A stretch of 64,000 bases of DNA from Octopus sinensis (lineage: Eukaryota): the NCBI RefSeq assembly GCF_006345805.1, contig NC_043006.1:4154001-4218000 (forward strand), in the 5' to 3' direction. The notes below the pieces were generated by a model, which was given only the letters and a program-made list of their open reading frames with translations, was not told where the DNA came from and searched no databases. The position numbers and the translations under genes are program-made. Within the stretch, counting starts at the first letter, position 1. Each line of letters starts with the position of its first letter. Below are positions 18,872 through 45,285 of the stretch, in pieces.

Positions 18872-18961
<90 letters not shown>

Positions 18962-19629: not shown

Positions 19630-19668
<39 letters not shown>

Positions 19669-21850: not shown

Positions 21851-21854
21851 ACAT

Positions 21855-22010: not shown

Positions 22011-22042
22011 AAAAAACATGCAGACAAATACATAACCGAATT

Positions 22043-22340: not shown

Positions 22341-22379
22341 CCACACATAACCGAACTACATTTGCTGTTCTCCACTCCA

Positions 22380-22660
22380 AAATCGAGCTTGCCGCGGCAT
22401 TGTTCAGAGAAATTAACCAGATTTGGGTCAACCGTTCGATTAGCATCCGGACGAAGATCTTGCTGTGTCAGAACATTGACCTATCAGTGTCCTGTACTAA
22501 TGAAACGCGGCCTTTGCAAAACTGGCACAAGAACTCTGTCTACATGAAAGAACATATTAGCTTTAATATTAATTGGTTAAACAGGGATAATTACTTCATT
22601 TATGCTGGAATTGCATCCGCTGATTTGTGTCTGCACAAAATTTTGGAATTTCGGGTGTGT
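22380..22660 (+). mobile_element. Degenerate RTE-type LINE fragment (post-RT region)
   Basis: FREINQIWVNRSISIRTKI..NET..L pattern resembles the RTE W.S..IS..TK..YG.ETW motif. Confidence 0.55.
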
Positions 22661-23066
22661 TTAAGAAATACAAACTTTCTATGCATGATACATACTCTCT
22701 CTCTCACTCTCTCTCACTCTCTCACTCTCTCTTACTCTCTCTCTCTCTTTCGCTCTCTCTCTCTCTCTTCACTCCTTCCTTCTCTCTCTCTCTTCCGCTC
22801 TCTCTCTCTTTCTCTCTCTCTCTTTCGCTCTCTCTCTCTCTTTCGCTCTCTCTCTCTCTTTCGCCCCCTCTCTCTCATTCCTCCCTTCTCTCTCTATCTT
22901 TCTCTCTCTGCTTGTGCCTGTACCTTTTCATAACCCTCGCCCCACACATATGTGTGCTCTCATTTATATCTCACCATATCTCTAAATATTTTATTGTTCC
23001 TAAGATAGAAACACTGTGAGAGAGAGAGAGAGAGTGAGTCAGTGTGTGTGTGAGGGAGAGAGAGTG

Positions 23067-23545
23067 TCAGCGTGTATTGGCAACACACAGACCCAGCTCC
23101 TCACACATCTGCAGCAAAAGCATGCCATTACTATTACACTTCCCCACCCCATTCTTTCCAATTACAGTCCATGTGTTAAAAACCTTACCCACTCTAGCAT
23201 TAAAGTTACCCAGTACGATGACTTTGTCTGCCTGAGGGATATTTCTTATAATGCCCTTCAGAGCATGGTAGAAAGAAAGTTTTTCGTCATCAGTAGAGTA
23301 CATTGTTGGAGCATACACACTTACCAAGATCACATAATTTCCTTTAACCAAAGGAATTCTCATGGGCATAAGACGTTCGTTAATCCCTACTGGGAATTCT
23401 TCCAACTTGTCCACAAGAGTAGTCTTAACAGCAAATACCACTCCAGCCTCTACTCTAAACTCTTCATTCCTCCCTTTCCAAAAGAATGTATATTTTCCAC
23501 AAGATTCTGTAAGATGACCATCTCCAGCTAATTTCGTCTCAGATA
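23067..23545 (-). mobile_element. RTE-type LINE apurinic endonuclease fragment
   Basis: IVALSETK, YTFFWKG, AGVVFAV, NERLM..R, SVYAPT, LGNFNARVG, CNSNGMLLL.MC..LGLCVANT. Confidence 0.85.
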
Positions 23546-24274
23546 AAGCAACGATATGCAAAATATACATAAAATATACGATGTAAAATATATAAAAATA
23601 TATATAATGAGCAAGCTATAGAAATATACAATTAGATATTGACTATAACTGAGATTAGATTATTTGTGGGTTTCTTACCTTAAAAATTAATACTTAAAAA
23701 TTAATATTTAGCATTATAATCGATTGTATGACATAATCATAATCGTTAAACTTCTAGTTTGATAATAGAGTTTTTTTATAAGGAAAAATATTATTTTATT
23801 TATTTCTTTAAAAAATATTGTTTAAATATATTTGATTATTTATTTAAATATTATCATTAACCTGAAGATTGACTATAACCATAATTCGAATTATTAATTG
23901 AATTTAAATTATTGTTATTCGAATTAGATTATGGGCATAAAACGATCGTAGTGGTTTTACTTTTTATCTTAAATTAAACTTTTTAATACTCCTTGATAGT
24001 TATATATATTATAAAAAAAGATTAAAATATTAAATTAAATTAAATTAAATTAAATTAAAATAATAATAAATATAAAAATAATAATAATATATATATATAT
24101 ATAAATTTATAAGTATTAATTAATAATTAAAAATATTAAAAGAAATTTTTTAATTTTAACTTTAATTAATTTAAATTTTGAATTTTATATTTATATATTT
24201 TGTATATTATATTAATTAATTTTATTTTGTTTTGGTTTATGTTTTTCACTGTTTGATAGTGGTTTTATCTCTAA

Positions 24275-24319
<45 letters not shown>

Positions 24320-24325
24320 ATATAC

Positions 24326-24385
<60 letters not shown>

Positions 24386-24393
24386 CATATACG

Positions 24394-24458
<65 letters not shown>

Positions 24459-25589
24459 TGTATATATATATATATATGCATGCACACCCACACATAGAGG
24501 CACATGTATAGACATAATAAGAACAGTGTGTACCAGCATAACCACCGTCGCCACCAACAGCAATAACAACATTAAACCTTTTGGCCTAATTCACACTAAC
24601 TTTGTCAATAAAATACAAAACCACAAATTGATGAGAATTTAATGACATAATTTCAAACTAATTAACGACATAAAATATTTATGAAAGATTAATGTATAAC
24701 AAGTTAATAGCGGTAAGATGGCGACCTACTACTAAACAACTGTAGCTATTAATACTAACTCCTATACTATACATTAGATAATGTAGTCCTAGATACACTA
24801 TGCCTGAATAAAAGATTCGATGGTCACAACTGGAATATCTTTTATCATAGGTATGTCTGGATCAAGACTGACCTGGGGCTAAACAACAACTATAGGCACT
24901 AATACTACACATTAGATAATGTAGTCCTAGATACACTAGGCCTGAATAAAAAATGGGATGGTCACAGCTGGAACATCTTTGATCATAGGTCTGCCGGGAT
25001 CATGACTGACCTGGGGTTAAACAACAATTATAGCTACTAATTCACTCTGTCTGAATAAAAGACGTGTTGGTCATGGCTGGAACCTCATTAGTTAGAGAGC
25101 TGCTAGATATGTGATTGATCGTGTCTCTCGCAGACAAACCCGAAAAGAAGAAATAGGAACCGGCCGTAATGCAGCCACACCAAGATGGCTGCCGCTCGAC
25201 TTTGAACAATTTATCAATAGTGGTGAAGCTGTGGCCTTAATGCCTCTCTGCGGGTTGGTCTTATAAAGCATCACGTGTTGCTTGTTATAGTTTATCTTTT
25301 TTCCGTGTCGAAAGATTTAAGCCAAACAAATGAACTCGAGGATTTGCAGATTATTTTTTCAAGATTAGGACTAATCTAACGTTCTCTTTTGCCAAACTAT
25401 TAAGTTGCGAAGACGGAAACAAACCTACTCCGGCTGTCAGGTGATGTGAAGGTTAAAGATACTGAGAAGAATTGGAATGAGCCCTTCTGTCATTGACCAA
25501 AATTGACATTTCATGATTTGACGAATTAATTCGCACTACCCCCCCCCGTTCCCAAATAAATCAACGTGTGAACAAACGAAAATATGTCT

Positions 25590-25990
25590 CTTATTCTTTT
25601 CTACTCGAGGCACAAGGTCTGCAATTTGGGGGGAGGGGGCCAGTTGATTAGATCGACTCCAATACGCAACTGGGACTTAATTTATCGACCCCGAAAGGAT
25701 GAAAGGCAAAGTCGACCTCGGCGGAGTTTGAACTCAGAACGTAAAGACAGATGAAATACCTATTTCTTTACTACCCACAAGGGGCTAAACACAGAAGGGA
25801 CAAACAAGGACAGACAAATGGATTAAGTCGATTATATCAACCCCAGCGCGTAACTGGTACTTATTTAATCGACCCCGAAAGGATAAAAGGCAAAGACGAC
25901 CTCGGCGGTATTTGAACTGAGAACGTAAAGACAGATGAAATACCGTTAAGTGTTTCGTCCGGAGTACCACCGTTTCTGCCAGCTCACTGT
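25590..25990 (-). mobile_element. Family-A SINE, tandem dimer
   Basis: Two cores (GAAAGGCAAAGTCGACCTCGGCGG) about 185 bp apart. Confidence 0.85.
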
Positions 25991-26144
25991 CTAAGTATGT
26001 CGCTTATTGACACGTCAGCAGGTTAATAAACGTGTTCGCTTACACCTTCAATATGCTTAAACATATTTCACTTAAGCCTCCAACGTGACAATAAATCGCC
26101 ATATTTCGCCCAGTCTATCATTTTGTCAATAAACAATATATTTA

Positions 26145-26365
26145 AGGCGGCGAGCTAGCACGCCGGGCGAAATGCGTAGCCGTATTTCTCCTGCCGTTAC
26201 GTTCTGAGTCCAAATTCCACCGAGGTCGGCTTTGCCTTTCATCCTTTCGGGGTCGATTAAATAGGTACCAGTTACGCACTGGGGTCGATATAATCAACTT
26301 AATCCGTTTGTCTGTCCTCTCTGTGTTTGGCCCCTTGTGGGTAGTAAAGAAATAGGTATTTCGTA
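26145..26365 (+). mobile_element. Family-A SINE
   Basis: Head, B-box, core and tail ending AAAGAAATAGGTATTTCG. Confidence 0.85.
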
Positions 26366-26856
26366 CATCTGATATCGAAAATTTATTATTGGAGTGTGCT
26401 TGTGCCTATTGTTGGATTTATTGTTGAAAAAATTGTATTATAGTTTTCTTTCGAATGTTATCTGTGGTTTTCCCCTGTGGGGGAAAACATTAATTGCCGG
26501 CAAGATGCCGAAAAGTGTGTCTTCGTCGGATGATGAATCATCGACTGAGCGAGAAGGAAGGAAAATAGAAAGTTTAATTTTTGACTACGTTTCTGATGTG
26601 TCGGAAAGTGAATTCTCTATTTACCAAAAGTTACGAATACCAAAACACCTGATCTGAGATCGTGTGCTGAAACGAAAACAATTGCAGCGTGGAAGGTGTT
26701 TATAAGCTATTTAAAAACACACAAAAACCGTTAGATTCACTTCAACATTTAAATTTAATTTGCCAAAATATTTTCGTCTCTTTCAGACCGCGACCTGTTC
26801 ACTGATAGAATTCCGTGCAGTGATCAGATCGCGGTCTCAAAGCGACGAATATATTT

Positions 26857-26909
<53 letters not shown>

Positions 26910-27403
26910 TTTAACCAATCAATCAATTAATGTTGTTATCATGCAATGCCTGCGCAAGAAGATTTTTTTTAAGTGAGGAAAGGTTGTGCACTGAGTCAAT
27001 CCCACTCACTAAGCAACAGCAGCCATAATCCGAAAAGAAGAACAAGTCGACATCACCAGTAACCACTGAGCCGCAGGTTTTATGTCGGAGTTATCCCAGT
27101 TACCTGAGTTACCTTCTCCTAGAAGGATGCCCTAACAAAGGCTAGGAGTCCTTCACTCCCAATGGTTTAACCGCGCGATCGGGCATGTGGAAGAGAGTGT
27201 AATTCGGCAGGAGGACTTAAACGACATGCAAAGGTACATGAAGCCCAGTTACAACTACAACCGGCTATTTCCGGTAAAGGTTTTAGTTGCCAATTTTGTA
27301 CAAGACATTGTAGATCTTTAGCTGGGCTAAAAAACGCATTCGATCACAGCACCAGTAACAGTTAAGCTTCGTGCAATGGCCATATTCGATAACGAGGGGG
27401 CAG

Positions 27404-27439
<36 letters not shown>

Positions 27440-27659
27440 CATACATAGATGCATAGTCTGTTATGTCTGGGGAGGGTCGTTTTCTTTTTGTGCCTTATAA
27501 TATAACACACTCACCGGTAAAATTTCCACTTAATCCTTATTTTTATTTTCCTCAAATTTTCGTTACGTCTTGCAACCTTTTCAATAGTCTTGTACACTGC
27601 GTTTCTTTTTGTTTGTTTGTGCGCATGTGTGTGGGTCAGTGTGCGTGTGTGCCTATATA

Positions 27660-28520
27660 TGCATGTATGTATGTATGTATGCATGTATGTATGTATGTAT
27701 GTATGTATGTATGTATGTATGTGTGTGTGTATGTATGTATGTATGTATGTATGTATGTATGTATGTATGTATGTATGTATGTACGTATGTATGTATGTAT
27801 GTATGTACGTACGTATGTATGTATGCATGCATGCATGCATGCATGTATGTATGTATGTATGTATGTATGTATGTATGCATGCATGCATGCATGTATGTAT
27901 GTATGTATGTATGTATGTATGTATGTATGTGTGTGTGTATGTATGTATGTATGTATGTATGTATGTATGTATGTATGTGTGTGTGTATGTATGTATGTGT
28001 GTGTGTATGTATGTATGTATGTTTGTATGTATGTATGTATGTATGTATGTATGTATGTATGCATGCATGCATGCATGCATGCATGCATGTATGCATGTAT
28101 GCATGTATGTATGTATGTATGTATGTGTGTATGTATGTATGTATGTGTGTATCATATGTATGTATGTATGTATCATATGTATGTATGTATGTATCATATG
28201 TATGTGTGTATGTATCATATGTATGTGTGTATGTATGTATGTATGTATGTATGTATGTATCATATGTATGTATGTATGTATCATATGTATGTGTGTATGT
28301 ATGTATGTTGTATGTATGTATGTATGTATGTATGTATGAATGTATGTATGTATGTATCATATGTATGTGTGTATGTATGTATGTATGTATGTGTGTATGT
28401 ATGTATGTGTATGTATGTGTATGAATGTATGTATGTATGTATCATATGTATGTGTGTATGTATGTATGTATGTATGTATGTATGTATGTATGTATGTATG
28501 ATGTATGTATGTATGTATAT
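27660..28520. repeat. About 860-bp (ATGT)n microsatellite with ATGC, GTGT and ATCAT variant blocks
   Basis: Direct reading; source of the long spurious CMYV/HTYI ORFs. Confidence 0.97.
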
Positions 28521-28595
28521 GTGTTCATCTGTATGTATGTATTCTGCATATTCATGTGCTTGCATGTCCGTGTTTGTGTATTTTTTATATATGTG

Positions 28596-28635
<40 letters not shown>

Positions 28636-28719
28636 ATATAATATAATATACACCCTAAGTTTAGGTGCTCTATACTTTCAATCTATATACCACCTAATAC
28701 ATTATTAGGTGGTCTATAG

Positions 28720-28754
<35 letters not shown>

Positions 28755-29346
28755 CATGATTATTATTATTATTCAGGTCACTGCCTGGAATTGAACTCGG
28801 GATCTTCGGATTAGTACCCAGCGCTCTTAACCACTACGCCATATGATGAAAGCTGGAGGGTGTATCAGCTGAAACGCTGTGTTAACAACGGACAAGATGA
28901 CAAATGTCCGTCAAATGTAAATAATGTAAACAATGTAAATAATCTAGCACTCTGTTTTCCCTTTTCTCCTTCCCTTTTCTTTTTTCCCCCTAATCCTTTA
29001 GACCAATGCTATTTTCCTTCCTTCTTACATTCTTCTCGATTCTCTTCTCTCTATCTACTTCCCCCTACCAGTATATTCTCAAAATTTCATCCACACTACA
29101 AGCATGAATGAACAGCACATGGAATGAATATCTAGTCACGTGTGAGTTGCGACGTCACAGGTGCCAAGCTGTATCTACCTTTGTCTTTCCCTTGGATAAC
29201 ACTGGTGGCGTGGAGAGGGGAGGCTGGTATGCATGGGCGACTGCTGGCCTTCTATAAAACAACCTTGCCCAGACTTGTGCCTCAGAGGGTAACTCTCTAG
29301 GTGCAATCCCATGGTCACTCATGACCGAAGGGGGTCTAAGTCTAAG

Positions 29347-29407
<61 letters not shown>

Positions 29408-29942
29408 TATATATTATATATATATATATATATTATGCAGCGTGCATGATCATATACATATGTGCATGTGTGTTTCTGTGCGTGTGTGTGTATGTTGTGT
29501 ATGTGTGTGTGTGTATGTTTGTGTGTGTGCGTGTGTGTTTGTGTATGTGTGTGTGTGTGTGTTTGTGTGTGTGTTATGCGTGTTCTAGAACATGGGACGA
29601 ATAGTTTGTGAAGAAAATGTTTGTTTAATTTTAAATAATACTTAATTAACGAGGCGAAACGAGATGATTGCTCGACGACACGCAGACAGCGTAGATGGAA
29701 GTAGGGAGGGGGGAGGAAGTATGCGGTAGAGAACGCCAGTTGGGACAGGCAGAGAGCGATATCGTCGTTTGTTTTCGTCCATCAGTAAACCTCTCCACTC
29801 ATATCAAGCACACACTTTGATCAAGGGCCTCACAACACGAGTGTGAGTGTCCACTCTCACTCTCACAGCAAGAGTGTCATCTCTAGCTCTTTCTCTCCCT
29901 AACAGACTGAAAGGCCTCATTGTGTGGCCCTGCCCCCAACTG

Positions 29943-29950
29943 CATATAAG
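29943..29950 (+). promoter_or_regulatory. Candidate TATA-like element of the M4 protease gene
   Basis: CATATAAG about 170 nt upstream of ATG 30119, in a unique, non-repetitive stretch. Confidence 0.35.
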
Positions 29951-30118
29951 GATCACCACCTAAAAATTCGGCTGCCTCGGATGTTTGTCTATGGTTACTA
30001 TTATAACTGTCTCCAGTTTGAAAGTCCACTATTTCATCTCCGTAGTGGCTGTACTTGACCAGTTGCTGCTGTTTTCCACTTCTGACTGACCAGTGTGACA
30101 GAGAGGGAGAGAAAGATA

Positions 30119-30167
30119 ATGGCTGCCTGTATCGGTGGGATTCACTTCCTTTTTCTTTTATTACTCG
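30119..30167 (+). CDS. Exon 1 of the M4 metalloprotease gene (first part of signal peptide, MAACIGGIHFLFLLLL-G)
   Basis: AGATAATGG start context; strong donor G|GTGAGT at 30167/30168; phase 1 matches acceptor TCTTTCTAG|GC at 35292/35293 and gives a continuous hydrophobic leader. Confidence 0.8.
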
Positions 30168-30299
30168 GTGAGTAAAACACGCATTTTCTAGGTTTGCATC
30201 TGTGTTTGTATGTGTGTCTCTGTGTATGCATACGTTTGTGCATGCGCTTGGATGTAATTATGTATGTGACTATATTTTCAAATGCGTAGATAGATAGAT

Positions 30300-30603
30300 T
30301 GGAGGCGCAATGGCCCAGTGTTTAGGGCAACGGACTCGTAGTCGGAGGATCGCGTTTCGATTCCCAGAGCGGGCGTTGTGTGTATTTATTGAGCGAAAAC
30401 ACCTAAAGCTCCACGATGCTCCGGCAAGGGGTAGTGGCGACCCCTGCTGTACTCTTTCACCACGACTCTCTCTCTCACTCTCTCTTCCTGTTTCTTGAGT
30501 AACGCAGAGATGGACTGGCGTCTCGTCCAGCTGGGGGGAACACATATGCCAGAGAAACCGGGAAACCGGGCCCATGAGCCTGGTCAGGCTTGAAAAGGGC
30601 GCA
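30300..30603 (+). mobile_element. tRNA-derived SINE, family C (intronic)
   Basis: GGAGGCGCAATGGCCCAGTG head, TTCGATTCCC B-box, shared body. Confidence 0.85.
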
Positions 30604-31412
30604 TAAAAAAAGATAGATAGATAGAGATAGATATACAGAGAGAGAGAGAGAGAGAGAGACAATGAGGGAGAGAAAGAGTGACTTTTTAAAATGCAAATTA
30701 TTGTGTTTGTCTTTTACGTGTTCCAGTCATTAGACAGCGGTCTATTATTTTATAATTATTATATGCGAATTAAAATCTGAAAATATTAATAGTGATTACT
30801 TTGTTAAATAATTTGGTAATTAAATATTGGAGTATAACTGAGTTAAAGATATTCTATAATTTACTAAAGTGTTTTTTTAAGCTAAATTATATCTTCACAG
30901 ATAAATACATATTTCTATCTATTTACTCTTCTTTTTTAGCATAAATATTAAATATTTAACATAATAAATGTGTTGTAGGAAATAATCCTAATGTTTTAAG
31001 TTTCAAATTTAGTTAATGGACTTTCTTCTATAATAAAAAAAAATATTATTTTATTTATTTTTAAATAAGTATTGTTTAACTCTATTTGCTTATTTATTTA
31101 ACTATTATTGTTAACCTGAAGATTGATGACTATAATTTTAAATTGAATTCATTTCAATTAAATTTAAATTTAATTGTAATTAGAATTTAATTGTACCCAT
31201 GAAACGTACTTAGTTTTTTTACTTAATATATATCAATCATTCATTTTTATACTTTTTGTGATCTAGTTCTATGTTTTATAAAAATATATATTATTTGATA
31301 TTTATATTCTGATTTATGTCTATCACTTTTTGAATTGCATAATAGTGGTTTTTATCTCTAATTTATAATTTATATATATATACATACGCACTGGTACATA
31401 CAGACAAACATA

Positions 31413-31460
<48 letters not shown>

Positions 31461-31814
31461 TTGATATGAGAGACGGGAGATGGAAGGAGCGAGAAGGTTT
31501 ATTGATTACTACTATTGTTTGGACTTATCTAGCATCGATCCCTCATTGGTGAGATACTGCACTACTGGTTTAGGTACATTTGTCCGTGTAGATGTGTCTC
31601 CTTAGATGGTTACAAAATGTATCTTGTTAAGTACTGTTCCGCAAGAAAAGGGCTTCATTTTTATAGAAATTCAATAACAAATATCAGATGCGGAAAGAAA
31701 CGGACACAAAATCGAGCGCAAAAAGTATTGAATATTACCGTTAACAGATGCAGATATATGAAAGCCTCGGTGTGGGTTGTATGGCGCACGTACGCGAGCT
31801 CATACAAACATTCA

Positions 31815-32085
31815 CGTAGATATAACTGGTACTTAATTTATCGACCCTGAAAGGATTAAAGGCAAAGTCGACCAACGGAATACGGAGAGGACAAACAAGG
31901 ACAGACAAACGGATTATGTCGATTATATCCACCCAAGTGTGTAATTGGTACTTGATTTATCGACCCCGAAAGGATGAAAGGCAAAGTCGACCTCGGCGGA
32001 ATTTGAACTCAGAACGTAACGGCAGACAAAATACGGCTAAGCATTTCGCCCGACGTGCTAACGTTTCTGCCAGCTGGCCGCTCTT
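31815..32085 (-). mobile_element. Family-A SINE, partial tandem (intronic)
   Basis: Core and head in reverse orientation. Confidence 0.8.
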
Positions 32086-32670
32086 TCATGTATCTAAATA
32101 ACGTGTTTACATTGCGTCACCTCCATAACCACAATGATTATTATTACCACCATCGTTCTTCCTATAGCATTTACAATCATCAATTATAATATGGGTCCCG
32201 GTATATTGCAGCAGATCTTCGTCCCTTTTTATCAAATACTCGGCAAGCGTTCTCCTTTCACTCCTTATACAGTGTTCTCAGCCCTGCATCACCATTCTTT
32301 CTTTTCATATACAGTCTGTTTACGTTTGTAGTTAACACTTATTATTATTATAGGAAGAATGGCCAGTATGAACGGACCAATTCTGAGGTTACACCCGTAA
32401 CAAAAATGGTAATGTAAAAGGAGAAAAGGGCTCTCTAGCCCCTTTTTGACCAGGCTTCCGCGGTTTTTATGGGTTTTTCCACGAGTAACCTTTCGAAGCG
32501 CCCCTCCCTATAGGGAGTTTTATTTGTTATATTTTTCGTTGTTAACTTGCATTTTTACACGGACCTTTCAAACGGACAAAACCCTTTTTGTAACTTTCGT
32601 CCTGTATTTTGTCTTTACATGTTTCATTTGATTTTTGTTAGCCCTTGTGGCCAATCAACGAATTAATTAA

Positions 32671-32734
<64 letters not shown>

Positions 32735-32774
32735 GTTATTATTATTATTATTATTATTATTAATATCATACTCT

Positions 32775-33177
32775 CTCTTTCTCTTTTCTCTCTTTTACTT
32801 GTTTCAGTCATTTGACTGCGGCCATGCTGGAGCACCGGCTTTAGTCCAGCAACTCGACCCCGGAACTTATTCTTTTGTAAGCCCAGTACTTATTCTATCG
32901 GTCTCTTTTGCCGAACCGCTAAGTAACGGGGACGTAAACACACCAGCATCGGTTGTCAAGCAATGCTAGGGAGACAAACACATACACACACATACATATA
33001 TATATATATATACATATATACGACAGGCTTCTTTCAGCCTACCAAATCCACTCACAAGGCATTGGTCGGCCCGGGGCTATAGCAGAAGAAACTTGCCCAA
33101 GATACCACGCAGTGGGACTGAACCCGGAACCATGTGGTTGGTTAGCAAGCTACTTACCACACAGCCACTCCTGCGCC
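32775..33177 (-). mobile_element. Family-B SINE (intronic)
   Basis: Closely similar to 15265-15720. Confidence 0.85.
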
Positions 33178-33185
33178 TGATATTA

Positions 33186-33238
<53 letters not shown>

Positions 33239-33248
33239 GTTGTTGTTG

Positions 33249-33309
<61 letters not shown>

Positions 33310-33310
33310 T

Positions 33311-35256
33311 TTTTTTTTCTTCTTTCAAATTTGCTTCCATTTCTTGCCGAGTGTCTTCCCGACTCCTAGGGCAAAGAAACTCATAGTATACATTGGTAGG
33401 CCATTAAACCAAACTCAATAGTTCGTTCATTTTTTATTTTTTTAAAGTTAAATTAAAATACATGAGCAGCAACAGTTCTCACATCGACAATACTCTTCTC
33501 AATACGTGTGATGTACCAGCTAAGACAATCTTTTGCACTTCTTGCAGGGATGGTAAGCCAGGGATCATTCGCATATAATTTTCGGTTCCCTTCTTGATCA
33601 TTCCTAGTGCTCCTACGATCACTGGTATTGTAACCGCCTTGAGATGCCACATTTTCTCAATTTCAATGGGTAGGTCTTTATATTTTCTGAGCTTGTCAAA
33701 CTCTTTCGCTGAGATATTATGATCACAGGGGATGCTCATGTCGATCAATAAGCAAACTTTATTGTTTTGGTCTTTCACAAAAATATCTGGTTTATTGGCC
33801 TTCATGGTTCGGTCTGTATGTACTGGAAAGTCCCACAGAATGGTTACATTTTCTCCTTCAGTTACAGCCTCAGGGTGGTGATTATACCACTTGTCGGCAG
33901 TTTTGATATTGTAATGCCGACTTATTAGCCAGTGGAGATATTGGCCAACTCTGTCATGTCTTAATTTATACTCCAATGGTGGTAAGACTTTACATCCAGA
34001 GATTAGATGGGCCACTGTTTCAATCATGTCGTTGCAGAATCGGCATTTTGGGTCTGCTCCATTTTTCATCACATTGGCCTGGTAGTTCCGGGTTAATAGG
34101 CTTTGATCTTGAGCAGCCAGGATGAAACCTTCGCTCTCTGCTTTTAGCCCTGAGCTCCGTAGCCACTGATGGGTTTGCTTCTGGTCAACATCAGCTTGTT
34201 TGCTGCGGGTCACATATTTGCCGTGCAGAGGTTTCTCCTCCCACCTATCAGCCAATTGCTCGTGCGCTTTTTTCGTTGCCATCATTTTCACCTTCTTTGC
34301 AACAATAGTTGCCGTACTTCCCTCGGGTTGTTCAGTTTGGGTATCCTGCACGAGATCAATAGCAAATTTTTTGCATTCCTTTATGATAGAATGAAGCTTC
34401 TTTCGTCTCTCGTGATTTCCACGAGCTTTAGCATCCAGTCATTCGATATTTCGAGATATTTGGCCAGTCCAATTGTGGTTGTTTTGTAAGCTAGTTCAAA
34501 TTGGATCAGGCCTCGACCTCCTTGGGCTCTGGGAAGGTAAAGGCGATCTACGTCTGCCTTTGGGTGGTGCATCCTATTACAACTCAGCAGCTTGCGTATT
34601 TTCCTATCTATATTCTTTACTTCACTCATATTCCAGTTCAACACATTGTAGCTATAAGTAACAACTGGAACTGCTAAGGAATTTATAGCTAACACTTTGT
34701 TATGTGCATTTAGTTCAGATTTCAGGACTGCACGAACTCTCCTATAACATTCCTTCCTGATCTTCTCTTTCATGCTTGCATGCTGAATACCAGAGCCTTC
34801 ATTTATCCCTAAATATTTGTATGTTTGTTCTTGCTCAAGCTCTCTTATGACTGTGTCAACATCTAACACGACTGAATTTGTGGTCTTCCCTTTCCCTTTC
34901 TGGAAAGTGGCCTTGGCACACTTCTCAAGTCCAAACTCCATCCGATGTCATCGCTGAATGCTTTCACGGTGCGCAATAGGCCTTCAAGTTCATTATTGTC
35001 TTTACCATAAAGTTTTAAGTCATCCATATAAAATAGATGGCTTATTTTTTTATTGGCAATTTTATACCCATACCCTGTTCTGTTAATTCACTTGTAAGGG
35101 TATTAGGGCTATGCAGAATATTAAAGGTGAAAGTGAGTCACCTTGAAAAATTCCACAGTTGATGTTATATTTTCTGAGGCAAGTACTCCATTAGAGTGGT
35201 ATAATTGGAGATTCGTATTCCACAACGACATATTGTGCTTCAGGAAGTTTGAAATA
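33311..35256 (-). mobile_element. R4/Dong-clade LINE (same subfamily as 19669-21850), 5'-truncated, inside the protease intron
   Basis: ORFs 33479..34351 and 34381..34941 plus HLFYMDDLKLY at about 35010-35040; 3' UTR like 21780-21850; (TAA)n tail 33180-33310 and (ATT)n 35255-35283 on the other side. Confidence 0.92.
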
Positions 35257-35292
35257 TTATTATTATTATTATTATTATTATTATCTTTCTAG

Positions 35293-37100
35293 GCTTCCTG
35301 GTGAGCCACGTTGTGACGTCAGCAAAATGGCGACAGGCCAGGGATGTGTTCCTGTCCAATGTGGATACCTTGAGCGAGACAATGAAGCGACAACCAAGTC
35401 ACATGATCACCACACGTGACCTATTCGGTCTGACCGAAGACGAGGACGTCACGCTGATGGACTCAGCACCGAGTGAGCAAGGAACCATCATCAAAAAGTA
35501 CGGCGAAACTTATAAAGGACTTCCGGTATTCGATGCCAGCCTCACTGTGGAGACGGACGCCAATACCGATGTGTACACTGGTCAGGTGACCGGAAAACTG
35601 GCTCAGAACCTTGACGATGACATCAGCTCTACAGTACCAACTTTGAACGAGCCGGAGGTGATGCTATTAGCTGCCAACTACGGAAACTTTTCTATGGAAG
35701 AGGCCCGCATAGACTACGATAAACTCCGGTTGACGATCTTCGTGAAGGACAACGTAGCAATCTTGGTGTATCGAATTCAATATTATGCCGTATCTAATGG
35801 AAAAAATTATCGATTTTGCATGCTAATCGATGCGAATAATGGAATGCTTGTTAAAAAATGGAACACACTAGAAACTGCAAAAAACAAATACAAAATGAAA
35901 GGTGTCGGGGGTAACAAATTGATAGGTAAATTGAGATACGGAGAAGAACTACCATATTTGGAAGTGACACGTGAGGGCGATGATTGTTATTTCGGCAACG
36001 ACATCGTTACAGTGGTGAATCTAAAGGAGGAAGAGTCTTTCTGCCTAACGAGGCAGAAAGTGTTTATAATGTAAAATGCAACACTGCTGCGATGGATGAA
36101 GCGAACGGAGCTTCTTCTCCGATAAACGATGCTATTTTCTATGGCAACGTCGTCTACAATATGTACAAAGAATGGGTGAAGATATCCCCGGTGAAAAAGC
36201 TGCCAATGGCTCTCCGCGTACACTTTGGCCAAAACATAGTGAATGCTTTTTACAATGGAAGAAACTTCTCGTCCGGTGACGGCGACAGGGAGTATCGGCC
36301 GCTAGTAAGTCTTGATATCATTGCACACGAAATAACCCATTGCTTCATGGAGGAACTTTCGGGCTTGATATACGAGGGGTAGTCGGGTGGTATCGACGAA
36401 TCGTTCAGTGACCTGGCTGGGGAGGCAGCCGAAAAGTTTTTAATCGTGTTTTAATCGTGTCTACGATTCCAATTCGCAACGTGTGTAACCAATCAACTGA
36501 TGGGAGGTCGATAATACATGCTGGCGACTACAATGATCTTATGGACGTACACTACTCAGTGGGGTATTCAACAGGTTTTACTGTCTGTTAGCCAGAAGGA
36601 GAGGATGGAATACGAAAAGGGTTTTAAAGGATGCGGCACATTCCAATCGTTTCTACTGGCATCCGACAACTACTTTCGTTGAGGCCGCTTGCGACTTCAT
36701 GAAGTCCGCTTATGATTTTGGCTATGATACTAAACCGGTAGAGAGAGTTTTTAGAAAAGTTGGTATAAAAGTGTGTGATCTGTCTTCGTACATCCGAACA
36801 GTGCACCAGAACTCAAAAATCGAGGACCTAAGTGCGATCCCTGAAGAAGAAATCATGTTTAAACTGAAGATAAAGTCAGAATTGAAGAACGTGAAAATTG
36901 CTACGTTTGGCGGTATAGGAGAAGCAGATCTGTTTGTTTGCTACAAGAAACTCCGCTGCAATGAGCATTTGACGAAATGGCGATCGAACAAGCCCGGGAC
37001 AAACCAGAAAATTTTAATGGAGAGTCCAAAGAAAGGTAGATATTTCATAATATTAAAATCAAAAGTCGAGGATTTTATCAAAGATGTAACTTTAAAGTAA
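35293..37100 (+). pseudogene. Exon 2 of a thermolysin-family (M4) neutral zinc metalloprotease, vibriolysin/LasB-like: FTP-PepSY propeptide, catalytic domain, C-terminal PPC domain; disrupted
   Basis: KYGETYKGLPVF (FTP), LIDANNG.LVKKW (PepSY), GVGGNKLIGK.RYG, NGASSPINDA.FYG.VV, VHFG..VNAFYNG..GDGD..PLVSLDIIA-HEITH (36326-36340), SGGID-E-SFSD (E 36398), DGRSI, MD-V-H (36550), FGGIGEADLFV (PPC); lesions at about 36033, 36380 (TAG), about 36440-36470 and about 36557. Confidence 0.92.
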
Positions 37101-37147
37101 CGTTAGAAGAAAAGTGATAAGGAGAAAAAGATCCCTTGTTTCAAAAT

Positions 37148-37153
37148 AATAAA
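37148..37153 (+). promoter_or_regulatory. Candidate polyadenylation signal of the M4 gene
   Basis: AATAAA about 50 nt after the TAA at 37098-37100; AT-rich context lowers specificity. Confidence 0.4.
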
Positions 37154-37335
37154 AGAAAATAGTTATGAAATTTTATAAGTTTTAAAATAAAGATATGAAT
37201 TCATTGTATGACTTTTTAAATTGAATTAGTTGTTTCAACAAATACCTTCTGGGTTAAAATGGCTGGCAAAGACAACAAAAGGAGAAAACGTGTGACCGAA
37301 ACAAAATTATATATGTACACATACATATATATATA

Positions 37336-37373
<38 letters not shown>

Positions 37374-38799
37374 AATGTGACAAGGTGGAAAAAAGAGTAC
37401 TCAAATACCAGTGGTAGAGTAATATGCTTTATTTTAAGCAGCAGAATTCAACAAAATCTGTTACTCTGAGTTTCTCGTTGCCGTTCATCAGACAGTTTTT
37501 TGCTAGAATGGAACTGATATATCAATTCAATCTATACTCTTACAAACGCTACACCTTTAAAAAAGAAATGGACTTGTTTGATTGGCCCTTTAGAAAAAAC
37601 GGTCAATCTTCGAGCGATAAACAAAAAGGTCAAAAATATGTATATATATATAAAAAACTTATAAAATTATAAATCCGAGGAAAAAACCTATGACGTTAAT
37701 GAAGACAGTGCAAATAATGCATAGAAATTAAACCTGTTATAAATAATGCAATACATATTTATATTAAAATCTACATATATATTCAACATACACAAAGGAT
37801 GCGCGTAAACGCCATACATACATATACAGACGTATGATATAAATCTAAATATACACATAAAAGCATGTGTACATATATTCACGCAAACCGTCTCGCACGC
37901 AAGCTAAAATTCATCTATGTAGCAATTCTATATACTGAGCAAGGAGGGGAACGAAAGAAAGGGAGAGAGAGAAAAAAGGAAGAAGGAGGGGTGGGGGAAA
38001 AAACGAATAAGAAAAAATTATGTATACAAGCAGTGTAACGGTATTATTGGCATATATAGAGACCAGTATACATACACAAGTTTGAATGGATACACATACA
38101 TACAGTCGTGTATATGTGTGCTTAAGTACAAACATACTTTCACTTACACATACACAGATACGCATGCTTACAAATACATATGCTTTGCTATACACATACT
38201 TATATAAACATTCTAATTTTGACAACATTGCTTTTTTAAAAAAAAAACATTGCTTTTAAAAATGGGTGCATTAATAAAAATATATACGAAAGATATATAT
38301 ATACATATATATATACATATATATACACACACACACACACGCACACACACACACACACACATATATAATTATATATATATATATATATACAAGCAGTTAA
38401 GCCCGGTTTCACCCGGTCTGTTTGGATGATGTGGCTGTGATCGTTTTCGGTTAGGCATAATCTATAACAGCTTCAGGAGTTCTGAGGAAAGAATTTTTAC
38501 GTAGTCTGTTTCTGAAAGCTAATCTATTGCACCTCTCTCTAATTACACTGATCAACAAAATGAAACTTTCCTTTTAATCATCAGAGTTGCTTATTGACTT
38601 TTCTGGGTTAAATTTCGATGCTGATTACGAATCCGAAGTCCGATTTTCTCAAACCGGTCACATTTTCATGTTAATGATACCTGATGTGTTAACTTATAGG
38701 ATATGTAAAGCATGTCTATATAAAGTATATTGAATACAAGATACGATAATTTCATGGCTTTTTATTGTACAAAATTAAAACTATTGTGTACGAATAAGT

Positions 38800-40040
38800 T
38801 AGAATACACTCAAATGCATAACAACTTGAAATCTTTGGGATTCGGACATTCTATGGTGTTTTGTCTGCGGTTCATCTCTATATAACATCCAACAGTAGTC
38901 ATCTAACATTCCTGCATTCCAAAATCCTTGATAGCATTGTTCCATCGATGCAATATCTTGATGAAAGCGTTCCCCTTGCTTATCAGACACTGGTCCAAGG
39001 TTCACTGCAAATGGCTGTGTGGTAAGTAGCTTGCTTACCAACTACATGGTTCCGGGTTCAGTCCCAATGCGTGACACCTTGGGCAAGTGTCTTCTACTAT
39101 AGCCTCGGGCCAACCAAAGCCGTGTGAGTGGATTTGATAGAGGGAAACTGAAAGAAGCCCGTCGTATATATATATATATACATATGTAGTTGTGTGTGTG
39201 TGTGTGTGTGTGTGTGTGTCTGTCTGTCTGTCTGTATGTATGTATGTATGTGTGTATATGTTTGTGTGTCTGTGTTTGTCCCCCAACATCGCTTGACAAC
39301 GGATGCTGGTGTGTTTACGTCACCGTAACTTAGAAGTTCGGCAAAAGAGACCGATAGAATAAGTACTAGGCTTACAAAGAATAAGTCCTGGGGTCGATGT
39401 GCTCGATTAAAGGCGGTGCTCCAGCATGGCCACAGTCAAATGACTGAAACAAAAGAGTAAAGAGAGAGAGAGAGAGTAAAAGAGTATGTGAATTAAGGAA
39501 ATGGACATTTTGTGACATCCGACAGCGTAGGCGTCTAGAAGACATTTCATTCCATTTCTAAACTCTAGAGATCTCTTGTTGCCTAGGAAAATTTCACAGA
39601 ACCATTTGAAGTTTTCCTAGGCTTTAAGCTCAATCTCATCCAGTGTTGCGAGGATGTGGTTGTCCTTCAGGAGTTCTTTTATCTGCAAACCTATGATGAA
39701 TACGCCCTCCTACAGTTTTGCCTCGGTGATTTTTGGGAATTTGGCCTTCATATAATCAAAACCATTTGAGCTTTTCCTGACAAGTGTCTTCACGAATTGT
39801 TGCACGAGGCCAAGCTTTATGTGAAGAGGGGGAAGAAGAACATTTTGGGGGTTTAAAAGTGGCTTACTCTGGAGCTAGAAACTCCTGGTTCATATGATTT
39901 TAGCAAAGGCCACTCTGATTGCAAATAGTGCTTGTTAGTTGCACGACTGTCCCACAGGTATAAAAAGAAATAATATTTCGTGAACCCAAGTTGTATTCCC
40001 TTCAACATTCTAATCATCTTCAAGTCTCCACATATTTTCC
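38800..40040 (-). mobile_element. Degenerate DNA transposase, probably CMC/Chapaev-like, split by a SINE
   Basis: W.ICGDLKMI, WDSRA, LLPPLHIKLGL.QQFVK, EGVF and VSD.QGERFHQD..ME..YQG.W..DYCW motifs; family label is from recall. Confidence 0.65.
39010..39485 (+). mobile_element. Family-B SINE nested in the transposase
   Basis: GGCTGTGTGGTAAGTAGC head; tail GCAGTCAAATGACTGAAAC-type. Confidence 0.85.
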
Positions 40041-40059
40041 AACTGTAGTTTGTATACCC

Positions 40060-40500
40060 TGTGTGTTTAGCCCCTTGTGGGCAGTAAAGAAATAGGTATT
40101 TCGTCTGCCGCTACGTTCTGAGTTCAAATTCCGCCGAGGTCGACTTTGCCTTTCATCCTTTCGGGGTCGATTAAATAAGTACCAGTTACGCACTGGGGTC
40201 GATATAATCGACTTAGTCCGTTTGTCTGTCCGTGTTTGTCCCCTCCATGTTTAGCCCCTTGTGGGTAGTAAAGAAGTAGGTATTTCGTCTGTCTTCACGT
40301 TCTGAGTTCAAATTCTGCCGAGGTCGACTTTGCCTTTCATCCTTTCAGGGTCGATAAATTAAGTACCAGTCACGCACTGGTTCGATATAATCGATTTAAT
40401 CCGTTTTTCTGTCCTTGTTTGTCGCCTCTGTGTTTAGTCCCTTGTGGGCAGTAAAGAAATAGGTATTTCGTCTGTCTTTACGTTCTGAGTTCAAATTCCG
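40060..40500 (+). mobile_element. Family-A SINE body in tandem (2 full units plus a partial third, period about 185 bp)
   Basis: TAGCCCCTTGTGGG..AAAGAA.TAGGTATTTCGTCTG junction repeated three times. Confidence 0.85.
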
Positions 40501-41090
40501 CTGTCAAGTTACCACACGGAGTCCAGTGGAAAGTTTGAAATTCTAAAACATTAAAAGGACATACTAATATACGAAGATAATGTTCAATTGATCCGAATGT
40601 TTTGTCGACGGGCTGTTGAAATATGACATAAATATCATATTTCAATGTAACTTGTGAATTTTTATTCTCTTGTATCTTATAGTGTGAATTAATAAGTTAA
40701 TATGTCTTATATTCATCTTTTCTATTTTGCTTAAGTATTTATATATATTTATGAGTATTTTTAAATACCTACGAGTTTTTATCTTACATCATATCGACGT
40801 TTTTTATATCTACTTTGCGTTTATATATTTTTAAATATTAAATATTTATATGCTCGTATGTTTTTAATACTAATATTATTTCGAACTTTATATTGATTTA
40901 TTAATGTCGAAGAAAGTACACATACATATTGAATATTCTATTGGATAATAGGTTATGTTCCTCTAGTTTTCCGTTCGTATTTCTTCCATTCAAATTATAA
41001 ATTGGAACTTGGCTCAATTTGAGCACTTTGATTCTAGCCTGTTTCTGAGTATTGTTAATGTTAGCAATCTTTATATAAAATAGTACAATA

Positions 41091-41122
<32 letters not shown>

Positions 41123-41508
41123 AATATTAGGGAATAAATCCAAACTTACAGGGAAAAATTAGATTTAGGATTAAATCCAATTTTATAGTATAATATATTA
41201 TGTTAATATTATATTAAATTAGAGATAAAACCACTATTAGGCAAATCAAACAGTGAAAAACATAAGCCAATACATAAAATTAATTTTAAATATAAAGTTA
41301 AAAATAAAAATTATTTTAAATAATTTAAACTTATAAATTTTATAAATTTTATATATATATATTTGCCTAATAGTGGTTTTATCTCTAATTTAATATATAT
41401 AATATATATAAGTTCAGCAAAATCTAGATTCAAATGAATATGGTACTTAAGTTAGACGCACTAGAATATTGTATGGTGTTATCCATATAAATCCATGGGG
41501 TGATTATA

Positions 41509-41735
41509 ATCAAAATAAGCAACAAGAATAACTTCGGTAATTTGATACGATCGTTTCGCACTACATCATTTTATTAAACATTGTAAGTATAACAACAGTT
41601 TTAAAATGTTGAGCACACATCAGCTATTAATAGAGGTTTTCCATTAATACATAATAATGTATCATTTAATAAAATGATGTAGTGTGAAACGATTGTACCA
41701 AATTACCGAAGTTATTCTTGTTGCTTATTTTGATA
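41509..41735. repeat. MITE-like element with about 70-bp inverted arms
   Basis: ATCAAAATAAGCAACAAGAATAACTTCGGTAATTTG ... CAAATTACCGAAGTTATTCTTGTTGCTTATTTTGAT. Confidence 0.75.
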
Positions 41736-42167
41736 TATATATATATATATATATATATACCAGACATTCTATTCTGAGCTATGGAAGTAGATAACTATCA
41801 ATATACCAGAGGATATTAAAGCTGTTTTTATAACAATGGAAGTGTTTAAGGAGGTGATTAGATATACAACAACACCAACAACAGATGAACATTTCAAAGT
41901 TTATCTTTTTTTAAAAAGTTAATTACTAATAAAGGAGCCAAACCAGCAAAGTGATCTCTATTAGGTTGACAGATCTGCTAGAAATAATAACCAAATTTAC
42001 CAAATTTACACACTTCATCATCTTAAGGTAGGACAAGTGGGACAATGCGGTTCTGAGTTTTCTACATTAGCAATAAAGACAGGATGGTCCCGGCTGGGAG
42101 ACATTTGATCATAGATCATTGTTTGGTCATGGTTGATCTGGTGACTAAACAACATGCACAAAACAAT

Positions 42168-42370
42168 TCACTCATGTAATGATAGACGTTTGAGTGCAGC
42201 GAAGGACTCAGCATCCACAAGAGCTGCCCTCAATGTATCCACCGTAACTTCCTGCGGATCACAATGTGTTGACCAGTAGAGCAGCATCTGGAAGATCTGC
42301 TCTTGAACGTTACCAGAAAAGTCATGCCGGATATGTCCCAGTTTGACACTTTTAACTCCCAAGAAAATGC
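42168..42370 (-). CDS. Terminal exon of a death-domain protein (helices 3-6)
   Basis: Acceptor TCTTCAACAG|GC (phase 1); IFLGVKSVKLGHIRHDFSGNVQEQIFQMLLYW...VTVDTLRAAL fits the LG..I..EQ..ML..W..T...L..AL death-domain pattern. Confidence 0.8.
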
Positions 42371-42598
42371 CTGTTGAAGATAGAACAATAAGAAATTACA
42401 GGAAAAACATTAACAATAATATAAGAGTTGTCTATTGCAACTCTCCAGCAAAGGACGTTCAATTTTTACAGATAATCTCTAAATGAGGCATCAATCCCCT
42501 CTTCCAAAAAAAAACAATACCTATTCTATTGTGCTTCATTAATTTATCCATTTTACCAATCAGGCTAATCTCAATTTTATTGAATCCCATCAATGTCT

Positions 42599-43559
42599 TT
42601 AACCCTTTCGTTTCCGTACTTATTTTGAGATGCCCTGTATTTCCTTCAATTAATTTTAAATTAACAAAGAATTTAGTAAAATAGCTTAATTTATCATTAA
42701 GCTAGTGTTAGGAACAGTATTTGTGACTAAGGTTTGGTGGAAGATTTTAATTCAGAACTTATGAAAACAAGACATTTGTACTACAGAGCCAGAGGCGGTT
42801 CCAGCCAGGTTGATATCGAAAGGGTTAAAAATATCATGGTCACTTTAACCCTTTTGTTACCATATTTCTGTTGAGACGTTCTGTGTTTCTTTCAATTACT
42901 TTAAATATAACAAAGAATTTAGTAAAATATCTTATCCTTAAGCTAGTGTTAGGAACATAAATTGTGACTAAGGTTTGGGGAAAGATTTTCATTCAGAACT
43001 TATGAAAACAAGACATTTGTACTACACAAGCAGAGGTGGTTTTAGCCAGGCTGATATTGAGAGGGTTAAAAATATCAGAGTGACTTTAACCCTTTCTTTA
43101 CTGTATTTATTTTGAGATGCTCTGTGTTTCTTTCAATTACTTTAAATATAAAAAGAAGTTAGTAAAATAACTTAGTTATCATCAAGCTAGTATTAGGGAC
43201 ATAAATTGTGACTAAGGCTTAGCGGAAGATTTTAATTCAGAATGTATGAAAACAAGACATTTGTACTACAGAGCCAGAGGCGGTTTCAGCCAGGTTGATA
43301 TCGAAAGGGTTAAACATATCATGGTCACTTTAATCCTTTTGTTACCATATTTCTGTTGAGACGTTCTGTGTTTCTTTCAATTAATTTTAAATATAACAAA
43401 GAATTTAGTAAAATAACTTAGTTATCATTAAGCTAGTGTTAGGAACATAAATTGTGACTAAGGTTTGGTGGATTATTTTAATTCACAACTTATGAAAATA
43501 AGACATTTGTACTACACAGCCAGAGGCGGTTTTGGCCGGGTTGGTATCAAAAAGGTTAA
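42599..43559. repeat. Tandem array of four about 230-bp TTAA-bounded (piggyBac-like) MITE units
   Basis: Each unit TTAACCCTTT...AAGGGTTAA; units start at 42599, 42845, 43086 and 43330; 16-nt spacers. Confidence 0.85.
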
Positions 43560-43679
43560 TAGAATTATTTTACAGTTAAAATTTCAAAATGGAAATTAGG
43601 AATGGAACCTGTTCTCAGTCATTCTGACATACAAAAGTTCAAGTGAAGGTAAAATTCAGTATTGTTATTTTATACTCAC

Positions 43680-43751
43680 CCACTTGCCACCATTCACTAC
43701 CTAACAGACGTGCCACCCTAAGGAGGTCCCTCTCCTCCAGCTTTTGAGAAT
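43680..43751 (-). CDS. Penultimate exon of the death-domain protein (helices 1-2)
   Basis: TTATTTCAG|AT ... GTGG|GTGAGT, 72 nt, phase 1-1; DSQKLEERDLLRVARLLGSEWWQVG joins in frame to the 42370 exon. Confidence 0.82.
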
Positions 43752-44129
43752 CTGAAATAAATATCTCCATGGTTTACAATTTATAATAAAATTTCTTTAT
43801 CTTTATTAGTAATCTATATTTTATTATTATAGCATATTCGTACCACCAATGGTCAAAAGGTGACCACAACAGTTTCCCCTCGACATTTTTTATGCGTTTT
43901 ACAATGGCACCATACAACAGCTCACTATTCAGGTCCACCACAGAATAGACTAACCTTCCTAAATCTTTTTTTTTATTATGAAAAATCATAGGCTGACAAA
44001 GTTGCTCTCATAGAATGTGAGCAAATGAAGTTTATTTTTGCACAGAGTCCTTCTTGTGGTCCACACACGTCTTCCATCAGTGTTGCAGTTCTTGGATCCC
44101 ATTGCTGAACAAGCTTCCCTCCTGTTGCT

Positions 44130-45285
44130 CACAAAATGCCATCAACAGCAGATATGATGTCATCATCACTGCAATCATAGTTCCCAACTGAGTAGTTTTG
44201 CAAATTAGTGGACAAACAATAGTCAGATGGGACTAAATCAGGGGAATAGGGAACGTAATCAATCAGTTTCACCCCCCAAAGTCATGCACAGCAGCCACTG
44301 AAAGAAAGGACTTATGTTCTGGGACATTGCGTAGACGATGCAATTTTCTGCTTTTCTGGGCATTTGGCCTTCATAGTCTTTTGGAACTGCCTCAGAAAGT
44401 TGGTACAATACTCACCATTGATGGCAGAGCCTTTCTGAGAACAGTAAAAAAAACACAATGCCTTTTGCATCATAAAAACCTGAGACTGTCCCCTTCCATG
44501 CAAATTAAACGATGTTGGCCTCCTTTGGAGCAGGCGAGGTGGGGTGTTTCCACTGCATGGATTATCTCTTTGTCTCTGGCTCAAGGGGATGAATCCAACA
44601 CTCATCCTGGCTTAAGAAAGGCTCAAGGAAACCAGCTGGATCTGCTTCAAAGAATGTCAGATTTTAGCATGATGTGATTTGGTATACTTTTGATCACGTT
44701 CCAGAAGACATGGTGCCTACCAAACAGAAACGACCATCATGCTAAGTTCATTGTACAGAATATTCTTAAATCTCTCACAGAAAATGCTTATAGCATAGGC
44801 TGTATGATTTATAGTCAATTGCTTGTCACCCATGCTGTGAACATTTTAAATGTTTTCCTCGGTGGTGGAAGTTGCAGGACGTCCAGACATTGGGTCCCCT
44901 TCAACACTCTCTGTTCGCCCCTTAAATGCAGCTGTCCACTTTTGCACAGTTGAAGTTGGAGTGTCATCAACCAATACATCAACCGTGTCGGCACAATTGA
45001 CCTTTGGGGCTAAACCCTTTCTCTACAGGTACTTGATTACATCCTGATACCAAATTTTGTCTCTTTTCAAAAGAAGTCGCTGCTGGTCATGTTTCAATTC
45101 TTCTTTGGATGTTCAGATGTCAGTAAACAGATGTCAGTAAACAATTCTTCTTTGGATGTTCAGATGTCAGTGGAATCAAATAATGCAGTTATTAATCAGA
45201 AGTGTCAAACTTAATACAAGCGAGATTTCCCATCCTTAGTATCCCTTGTTCGTTGTCTCCCTATGAACTTTTCAGAACACCCTCG
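44130..45285 (-). mobile_element. Degenerate mariner (DD34D-type) transposon
   Basis: PYSPDLVPSDY motif near 44230-44255, INGEYC; terminal TA|CGAGGGTGTTCTGAAAAGTT at 45266-45287; other TIR not found. Confidence 0.75.

Follow-up and report, generated by a model that had tools for sequence, protein, structure and literature searches.

A broken copy of a vibriolysin-type protease gene in Octopus sinensis and the probable bacterial origin of its mollusc family

Does an M4 metalloprotease gene of bacterial type in an octopus genome encode a working enzyme, and from where did its family come? We analysed a stretch of 64,000 nucleotides (the window; G000:C10:4,154,001-4,218,000) within the 2.7-Gb genome of Octopus sinensis. 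A sequence-only reading had described in it a vibriolysin/LasB-like protease gene, and proposed an ancient bacterium-to-mollusc transfer and a later use as a secreted enzyme. The window locus is a recent dead duplicate of an intact gene on contig C27. Our reading as a whole is that this spliced gene was copied within a duplication of ~55 kb and the copy broken, and that the family probably goes back to a single acquisition from bacteria, no later than the origin of molluscs. We regard it as quite probable.

The window locus as a broken duplicate

The locus has two exons and lies within a segmental duplication:
29802..30167, + strand: exon 1, with the 5' untranslated region and the coding part 30119-30167 (ATG, 16 codons and 1 base; start of the signal peptide), and then the donor GTGAGT
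30168..35292 (5,125 bases), + strand: phase-1 GT..AG intron that splits the signal peptide, with the acceptor AG at 35291-35292; ~11.3 kb on C27
35293..37100, + strand: exon 2, intronless and broken here, with the rest of the signal peptide, the propeptide, the M4 catalytic domain and the PPC domain
35460..35564, + strand: FTP propeptide motif (Pfam FTP, E 0.0013, 19 bits against a cut-off of 21), with a KR site before it
36119..36767, + strand: M4 catalytic domain, in pieces (HEITH 36326-36340, E 36398, R 36475, H 36550)
36777..37097, + strand: C-terminal PPC-type beta-sandwich domain, from a bacterial profile match and Foldseek matches on the C27 model
935..51368: segmental duplication, colinear with G000:C27:20,999,949 down to 20,930,792, as a chain of blastn blocks of ~85-96% identity

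The duplication begins 2-6 kb upstream of the window and has ~50 kb inside it. Exon 1 matches its C27 counterpart at 96%, and those of two copies on contig C30 at 66-68%. An acceptor of the same phase occurs at the equivalent site in C27, both C30 copies and four copies on contig C11.

The motifs of the sequence-only reading are where it had placed them, all on the + strand. The zinc histidine codons of HEITH are at 36326 and 36338, the glutamate of DESFSD at 36398 and the histidine of MDVH at 36550. The cysteine codons are at 35985, 36077, 36690 and 36774. Likewise, the maturation junction KKWNTLETA..GVGGNKLIGK and the FGGIGEADLFV of the last domain lie at the positions first given. The codons for the catalytic residues are still retained. 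However, the stitched reading frame is not that of a single working gene. No single open frame runs through the catalytic domain; the copy carries six breaks, with the first stop at 36072. Because of these breaks, the motifs are spread over four distinct open frames.

The window copy and C27 show 76 differences in 1,823 aligned bases. The first break is a 2-base insertion near 36036 (36035..36074), which leads to the stop at 36072, upstream of the zinc site. The others, compared with C27, are a stop at 36380, losses of 15 bases near 36442 and of 10 bases near 36454 (with a stop at 36452), and losses of one base near 36555 and near 37093. The spliced frame would stop at 276 residues, ahead of HEXXH. 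At most, the window copy could yield a piece of this length without the zinc site. In a rough outgroup-polarised count (13 changes unclear), the window branch has 17 amino-acid against 8 synonymous changes, and the C27 branch 13 against 19.

The domains were searched on the window pieces. Peptidase_M4 matches with E 1.6e-19 (71.2 bits). M4_C gives two matches below the cut-off (E 0.011, 16 bits; E 2.6e-4, 21.3 bits) because the breaks split this domain. PepSY and PPC have no Pfam match on these pieces. Nevertheless, the last domain reaches 40.3 bits with a profile built on 76 C-terminal domains from bacteria, and the best of 132 reversed or shuffled controls reaches 2.4, so the PPC assignment stands. 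The FTP and PepSY propeptide stands in part: FTP is present below its cut-off, and the fold, but not a PepSY match, is recovered in the model of the intact paralogue. The 1.8-kb exon is intronless, as described. Its guanine-cytosine (GC) content is 43.9% compared with 29.9% downstream, which agrees with the earlier observation. However, GC content is ruled out as a sign of transfer by the adjoining long interspersed nuclear element (LINE; 42.5%) and by the C11 and C3 paralogues (35.8% and 36.6%).

The window copy might be an assembly artefact, that is, a misplaced second haplotype of C27 with indel errors. The ~50 kb of colinearity would agree with this, and small indels are typical of long-read errors. 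On the other hand, the exons differ by 4.2%, the flanks by ~4-15%, and the transposon insertions are different. In runs X17 and X18, the short-read contigs include both forms at 36002-36071. Contig 12 of X17 spans the 2-base insertion region without a difference, and contig 20 of X18 keeps the insertion. The breaks in the catalytic region are present in contigs of X16 and X17. The contigs of X18 carry the insertion, the stop at 36380, the deletions at 36442-36454 and two additional lesions. All three are DNA-like runs; X16 and X17 share one study and X18 comes from a different one. X16 and X17 are possibly the source of the window, and this weighs against our account. For X20 only the intact form is listed, and contigs show presence, not absence. 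We consider an artefact highly improbable. The window locus is a dead duplicate and not a working enzyme; the intact parent is on C27.

Transcripts and the predicted product of the intact gene

The intron of 5.1 kb is skipped by one contig in each of four RNA-like runs from four studies. In all four, the spliced contigs carry the C27 letters at 29952, 30006, 30062 and 30135, and the differences in indels are also listed for three runs. It follows that the intact type, and not the window locus, is the source of the spliced transcript. Integration in host chromosomes, splicing and transcription of the family are observed for this C27-type transcript. RNA-like contigs of the four runs cover the exon 1 span 29802-30167, and two of them (offsets direct) reach ~80-87 bases upstream of 29802. 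A TATA-like box at 29943 was considered as promoter and is unsupported: C27-type contigs cross it from upstream, though contigs cannot mark a start.

Two points weigh against this account of transcription. The run types were guessed and no run among those listed is on record as RNA, so RNA-like is a label by guess. In addition, one contig of 160 bases (depth 2.7) from an RNA-like run is identical to the window copy. It may represent DNA or a faint transcription of the broken copy.

The exon-2 translation of C27 (P0001) is contained letter for letter in XP_029652155.1, 'elastase-like [Octopus sinensis]', and differs from an O. vulgaris record in 4 of 617 residues. The sequence-only reading was unsure about annotation elsewhere. 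Proteins of the family are already in NCBI under the automatic names 'elastase-like', 'virulence metalloprotease-like', 'hap' and 'neutral protease-like'. Pfam gives Peptidase_M4 (80.6 bits) and M4_C (90.7 bits) on the C27 protein, both above the cut-offs, and a weak FTP match (E 0.0077). PepSY has no Pfam match on it, and matches a protein of a cuttlefish cluster with E 5.6e-4. The best sequence match in the PDB is pro-elastase LasB (E 5e-84, residues 41-502), alongside MCP-02; thermolysin is far behind (4e-27).

The amino acids H346, E347, H350, E370, R404 and H429 are invariant in the 30 aligned proteins of the mollusc clade. Likewise, C233, C263, C476 and C504 are invariant in the same proteins. 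The first three align with cysteines of LasB, and disulfides are predicted. The structure model of the C27 protein has a mean predicted local distance difference test (pLDDT) score of 83.6, and matches MCP-02 with a root-mean-square deviation of 1.2, a template modelling (TM) score of 0.97 and 40% identity. Its propeptide fold matches 3nqz_A (E 5e-11). The C-terminal domain gives Foldseek matches to the collagenase PPC/collagen-binding domains 5sv5 and 2o8o (E ~4e-4). From sequence and model, the C27 gene is predicted to encode a secreted zinc protease of vibriolysin/LasB type.

By analogy with LasB and MCP-02, the intact protein would be exported via the endoplasmic reticulum. The KR site suggests a possible trimming by an animal convertase. 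The FTP/PepSY propeptide would assist folding, followed by self-cleavage near residue 200. Zinc would be held by H346, H350 and E370, with E347 as the base, and the PPC domain would bind insoluble collagen-like substrates. The role that we find most likely, at about even chances, would be to break down food or tissue protein outside the cell. Our best guess is a digestive or salivary function, with defence or tissue remodelling as competing roles. In word look-ups, the main text of the venom papers PMC7656900 and bioRxiv 2026.02.02.703354 showed no mention of an M4 enzyme.

Age and source of the family

A paralogue search of the genome, which had been suggested with the first description, gave 10 PF01447 matches on five chromosome-scale contigs: C3, C10, C11 (five), C27 and C30 (two). 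Apart from C27, six copies are intact within exon 2; three others, besides that of the window, are broken or partial. On C11, a tandem cluster of subfamily II (C11:71.40-71.50 Mb; L005-L008, L012) has three copies whose exon 2 is open, one whose propeptide contains a stop, and one fragment. The copy at C11:31.41 Mb (L010, L011) has a frameshift in the propeptide. Short first exons of two C11 copies were located 4.7 and 9.2 kb upstream of exon 2, at L103:3690-3960 (reverse strand) and L106:1-260. They combine a TATA-like box and an ATG with hydrophobic codons and a phase-1 GTAAGT donor. No confident location was found for exon 1 of the C3 copy.

The named relatives come from Octopus, Argonauta, Sepia, Pinctada, four scallop genera, Mytilus, Tegillarca, Pomacea, Patella, Haliotis and Liolophura. 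They span cephalopods, bivalves, gastropods and one chiton. In the IQ-TREE C20 tree of 104 rows, to which the support values for groups and subfamilies below refer, the mollusc group has 27 rows (17 named, 10 unlabelled) and a Shimodaira-Hasegawa-like approximate likelihood ratio test (SH-aLRT) support of 99. It includes subfamily I (cephalopods, bivalves; 99) and subfamily II (chiton, cephalopods, a bivalve, gastropods; 97). The approximately unbiased (AU) test rejects a separate cephalopod transfer (p 0.009) and the grouping of all cephalopod copies together (p 0.002). This test used 60 rows and LG+G4, both hypotheses were framed after the trees were seen, and P0158, unstable across trees, was excluded from its sets. 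In both subfamilies a phase-1 intron precedes the first conserved aromatic residue by 11-12 codons; the family and this intron are therefore likely of equal age. On these sequence comparisons, the two subfamilies appear to predate the split of chitons, snails, bivalves and cephalopods. They support a gain that is at least pan-molluscan, possibly older, and not a cephalopod innovation. The proposed transfer thus keeps its bacterial source for the family, and its extent is corrected.

A bacterial contamination, or a recent transfer specific to cephalopods, might be suspected from the 1.8-kb intronless exon and from the 30-38% identity to enzymes of Vibrio, Pleionea and Xanthomonadales. Contamination is excluded because 10 M4 catalytic domains are on five chromosome-scale contigs. 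Besides, a spliceosomal intron is removed in the transcripts, the flanks are host repeats, and the AU test rejects both cephalopod-only trees. To this pair of explanations we give practically no weight. The continuity of the gene with the host genome is upheld by the 10 copies, the colinearity with C27, the spliced transcripts and the contigs of the DNA-like runs.

Among other relatives, the nearest are proteobacterial vibriolysin/LasB enzymes, which match in all four domains. Ten listed Atlas clusters are 98-100% bacterial. For P0001 and P0139 the Atlas, which omits small clusters, gave bacterial clusters only. A bacterial origin is indicated because the domain set is of vibriolysin type, the exon is intronless and the nearest clusters are bacterial in make-up. 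The contrary readings are vertical inheritance from early eukaryotes with many losses, or a transfer from animals to Proteobacteria. They gain from the position of the distant outgroup. One FastTree run nests the animal-like clade inside Proteobacteria; in the other FastTree run and both IQ-TREE runs the outgroup attaches at or within the base of this clade, on the animal side. Whether the clade is nested in or sister to Proteobacteria depends on this attachment point. The outgroup rows are unlabelled and were taken as thermolysin-type by distance alone. Both the attachment and this choice of rows weigh against a bacterial source. Nevertheless, the forks in question are weak (64 or open), and the likelihood is higher by 4.6 when the animal-like rows are kept in one group. 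The bacterial make-up of the Atlas clusters, the wholly bacterial domain set and the intronless exon also speak against these two readings. No fungal or protist match of vibriolysin type is named, one contaminated library aside. We judge them improbable.

How far before the molluscs could the bacterial gene have entered? A group B of 11 rows (support 86) is sister to the molluscs at an SH-aLRT of 89. A group C of 6 rows is unstable in placement, and the support for joining it is at most 87. In the 18 residues before FTP, a KR or RR site occurs in 24 of 28 rows of the mollusc clade, 6 of 8 of group B and 4 of 5 of group C, compared with 2 of 38 GTDB rows and 11 of 196 other rows (rows with fewer than 22 residues before FTP were skipped). 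Groups B and C share with molluscs this site and the N-terminal extension. The animal-like rows split from the bacterial-type rows at 97, and the test does not reject a single clade for them (p 0.56). This clade contains none of the dereplicated rows from 80 GTDB and 80 metagenome loci.

The transfer may therefore be far older than molluscs, with groups B and C representing other animals (annelids, brachiopods, perhaps deuterostomes or cnidarians). The gain would then be in a stem lophotrochozoan, bilaterian or metazoan, with loss in arthropods and vertebrates. This we think more likely than not. It draws on the sister position of group B, the shared site and extension, and the unrejected single clade. 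P0195 has a paralogue on the same 243-kb contig. P0286, one of the rows of groups B and C, comes from a EukProt library of Siedleckia nematoides. Passages of PMC6733595 describe this parasite as taken from the gut of the polychaete Scoloplos cf. armiger, with host contaminants in the data. We infer an annelid source for P0286. With this member, whose library contains polychaete contaminants, the sister groups point to an older gain, in lophotrochozoans. Since they are unlabelled, the clade may even reach early metazoans.

Several observations weigh against so early a gain. The 17 rows of groups B and C have no animal label, and their sole label is that of the Siedleckia library. No named animal other than molluscs occurs among the matches listed (best 150 of 9,545 representatives) or in 30 name look-ups. 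A profile search with the mollusc alignment gave no new animal names among its matches listed, which bacterial candidates filled. P0185 is rather bacteria-like (59% to a metagenome protein, two strong PPC domains) and sits in an open fork of the tree. A metagenome contig search for its source gave only relatives of 41-54%.

P0140, P0152, P0260 and P0185 are environmental proteins of JGI in the animal-like clade, two of them named 'vibriolysin' or 'Zn-dependent metalloprotease'. They are probably animal sequences under bacterial names.

For an acquisition from bacteria at or before the origin of molluscs, the steps would be these. An intronless bacterial gene with propeptide, catalytic and PPC domains entered an early mollusc or lophotrochozoan. 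It would then have gained the phase-1 intron in the signal peptide and the KR/RR site before the propeptide, and later duplicated. A fuller version is possible, and we hold it tentatively. It consists of a single capture, in a stem lophotrochozoan, of a protease from the class with which Vibrio pathogens attack shellfish, secretory rewiring through the signal-peptide intron and the convertase site, and more than 500 million years as an unrecognised multigene family in molluscs and annelids. In it, an octopus subfamily would act in prey digestion or saliva, still turning over by segmental duplication.

Repeats, known systems and significance

The remaining long frames of the window are repeats and retroelements, and the flanks are host repeats:
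33190..35245 (edges approximate), - strand: broken LINE in the intron (reverse transcriptase and zf-RVT; RVT_1 E 0.001, zf-RVT E 0.0016), with an AAT-repeat tail near 33180-33310
16172-21331: two more LINEs, broken and of the type found in the intron (RVT_1, zf-RVT)
27457-28641: long ATGT/GTAT microsatellite upstream of exon 1, which yields spurious open frames
54873-56692: two overlapping long frames of 281 and 348 amino acids, with the look by eye of a Penelope-type reverse transcriptase and no Pfam match at E 0.01
61030-63898: LINE frames with endonuclease and reverse transcriptase and one frameshift (Exo_endo_phos E 2e-12, RVT_1 E 1e-34)

The intronic LINE is missing from the colinear C27 stretch, where the colinearity has a gap at 33189-35257. 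Long contigs of its family occur in RNA-like runs, which points to a possible transcription of related elements.

The M4 family is treated as bacterial. MCP-02 of Pseudoalteromonas (PDB 3nqx/3nqy/3nqz) and the neutral proteases of Vibrio present the same signal, FTP/PepSY propeptide, M4 and PPC order. The neutral protease of Vibrio chagasii has 37% identity to the octopus protein, in an alignment that extends into PPC. Compared with them, the octopus nuclear gene has an intron in the signal peptide, an N-terminal extension ending in KR and a PPC domain below Pfam detection, and the window copy is broken. LasB (pseudolysin) of Pseudomonas aeruginosa has the same HEXXH and E, and its cysteine positions align. 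However, the matched LasB chains have 498-514 amino acids without PPC, and the octopus protein has 632 with PPC. The NCBI mollusc proteins XP_029652155.1, XP_064608632.1 ('neutral protease-like [Liolophura sinensis]') and XP_050407048.1 ('elastase [Patella vulgata]') belong to the same family, and the broken window copy is a locus distinct from theirs.

Domesticated bacterial enzymes are known in animals, such as the cellulases of nematodes and beetles and the Dae amidases of ticks. There, as proposed here, a bacterial enzyme was kept as a secreted animal protein, gained an intron and was later duplicated. Unlike those, the octopus family consists of proteases, and among its bacterial relatives are virulence factors of pathogens that attack molluscs. 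One of these is Vsm of Vibrio splendidus, as described in PMC5078317.

Among the papers listed from the open-access literature we found none on the origin or function of the mollusc M4 family; subscription papers and supplements (saliva proteome tables, transfer screens) were outside this scope. Animal M4 is absent from the passages of PMC12773714, PMC7656900, PMC10192322, PMC3625958 and bioRxiv 2026.02.02.703354 covered by word look-ups. The 'Peptidase_M4' matches of a Perkinsus paper are really M41 and M48. The family seems little described.

The window locus itself is an ordinary pseudogene, and the family it leads to is of more interest. This family is real and old, probably derived from bacteria, and occurs in molluscs and perhaps other lophotrochozoans. 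If true, it would be among the older bacterium-to-animal transfers of a secreted enzyme. When shellfish transcriptomes and proteomes yield matches named 'virulence metalloprotease', 'hap' or 'vibriolysin', these can come from genes of the host and not from contaminating Vibrio. The intact C27 gene opens the role of this enzyme to direct testing.

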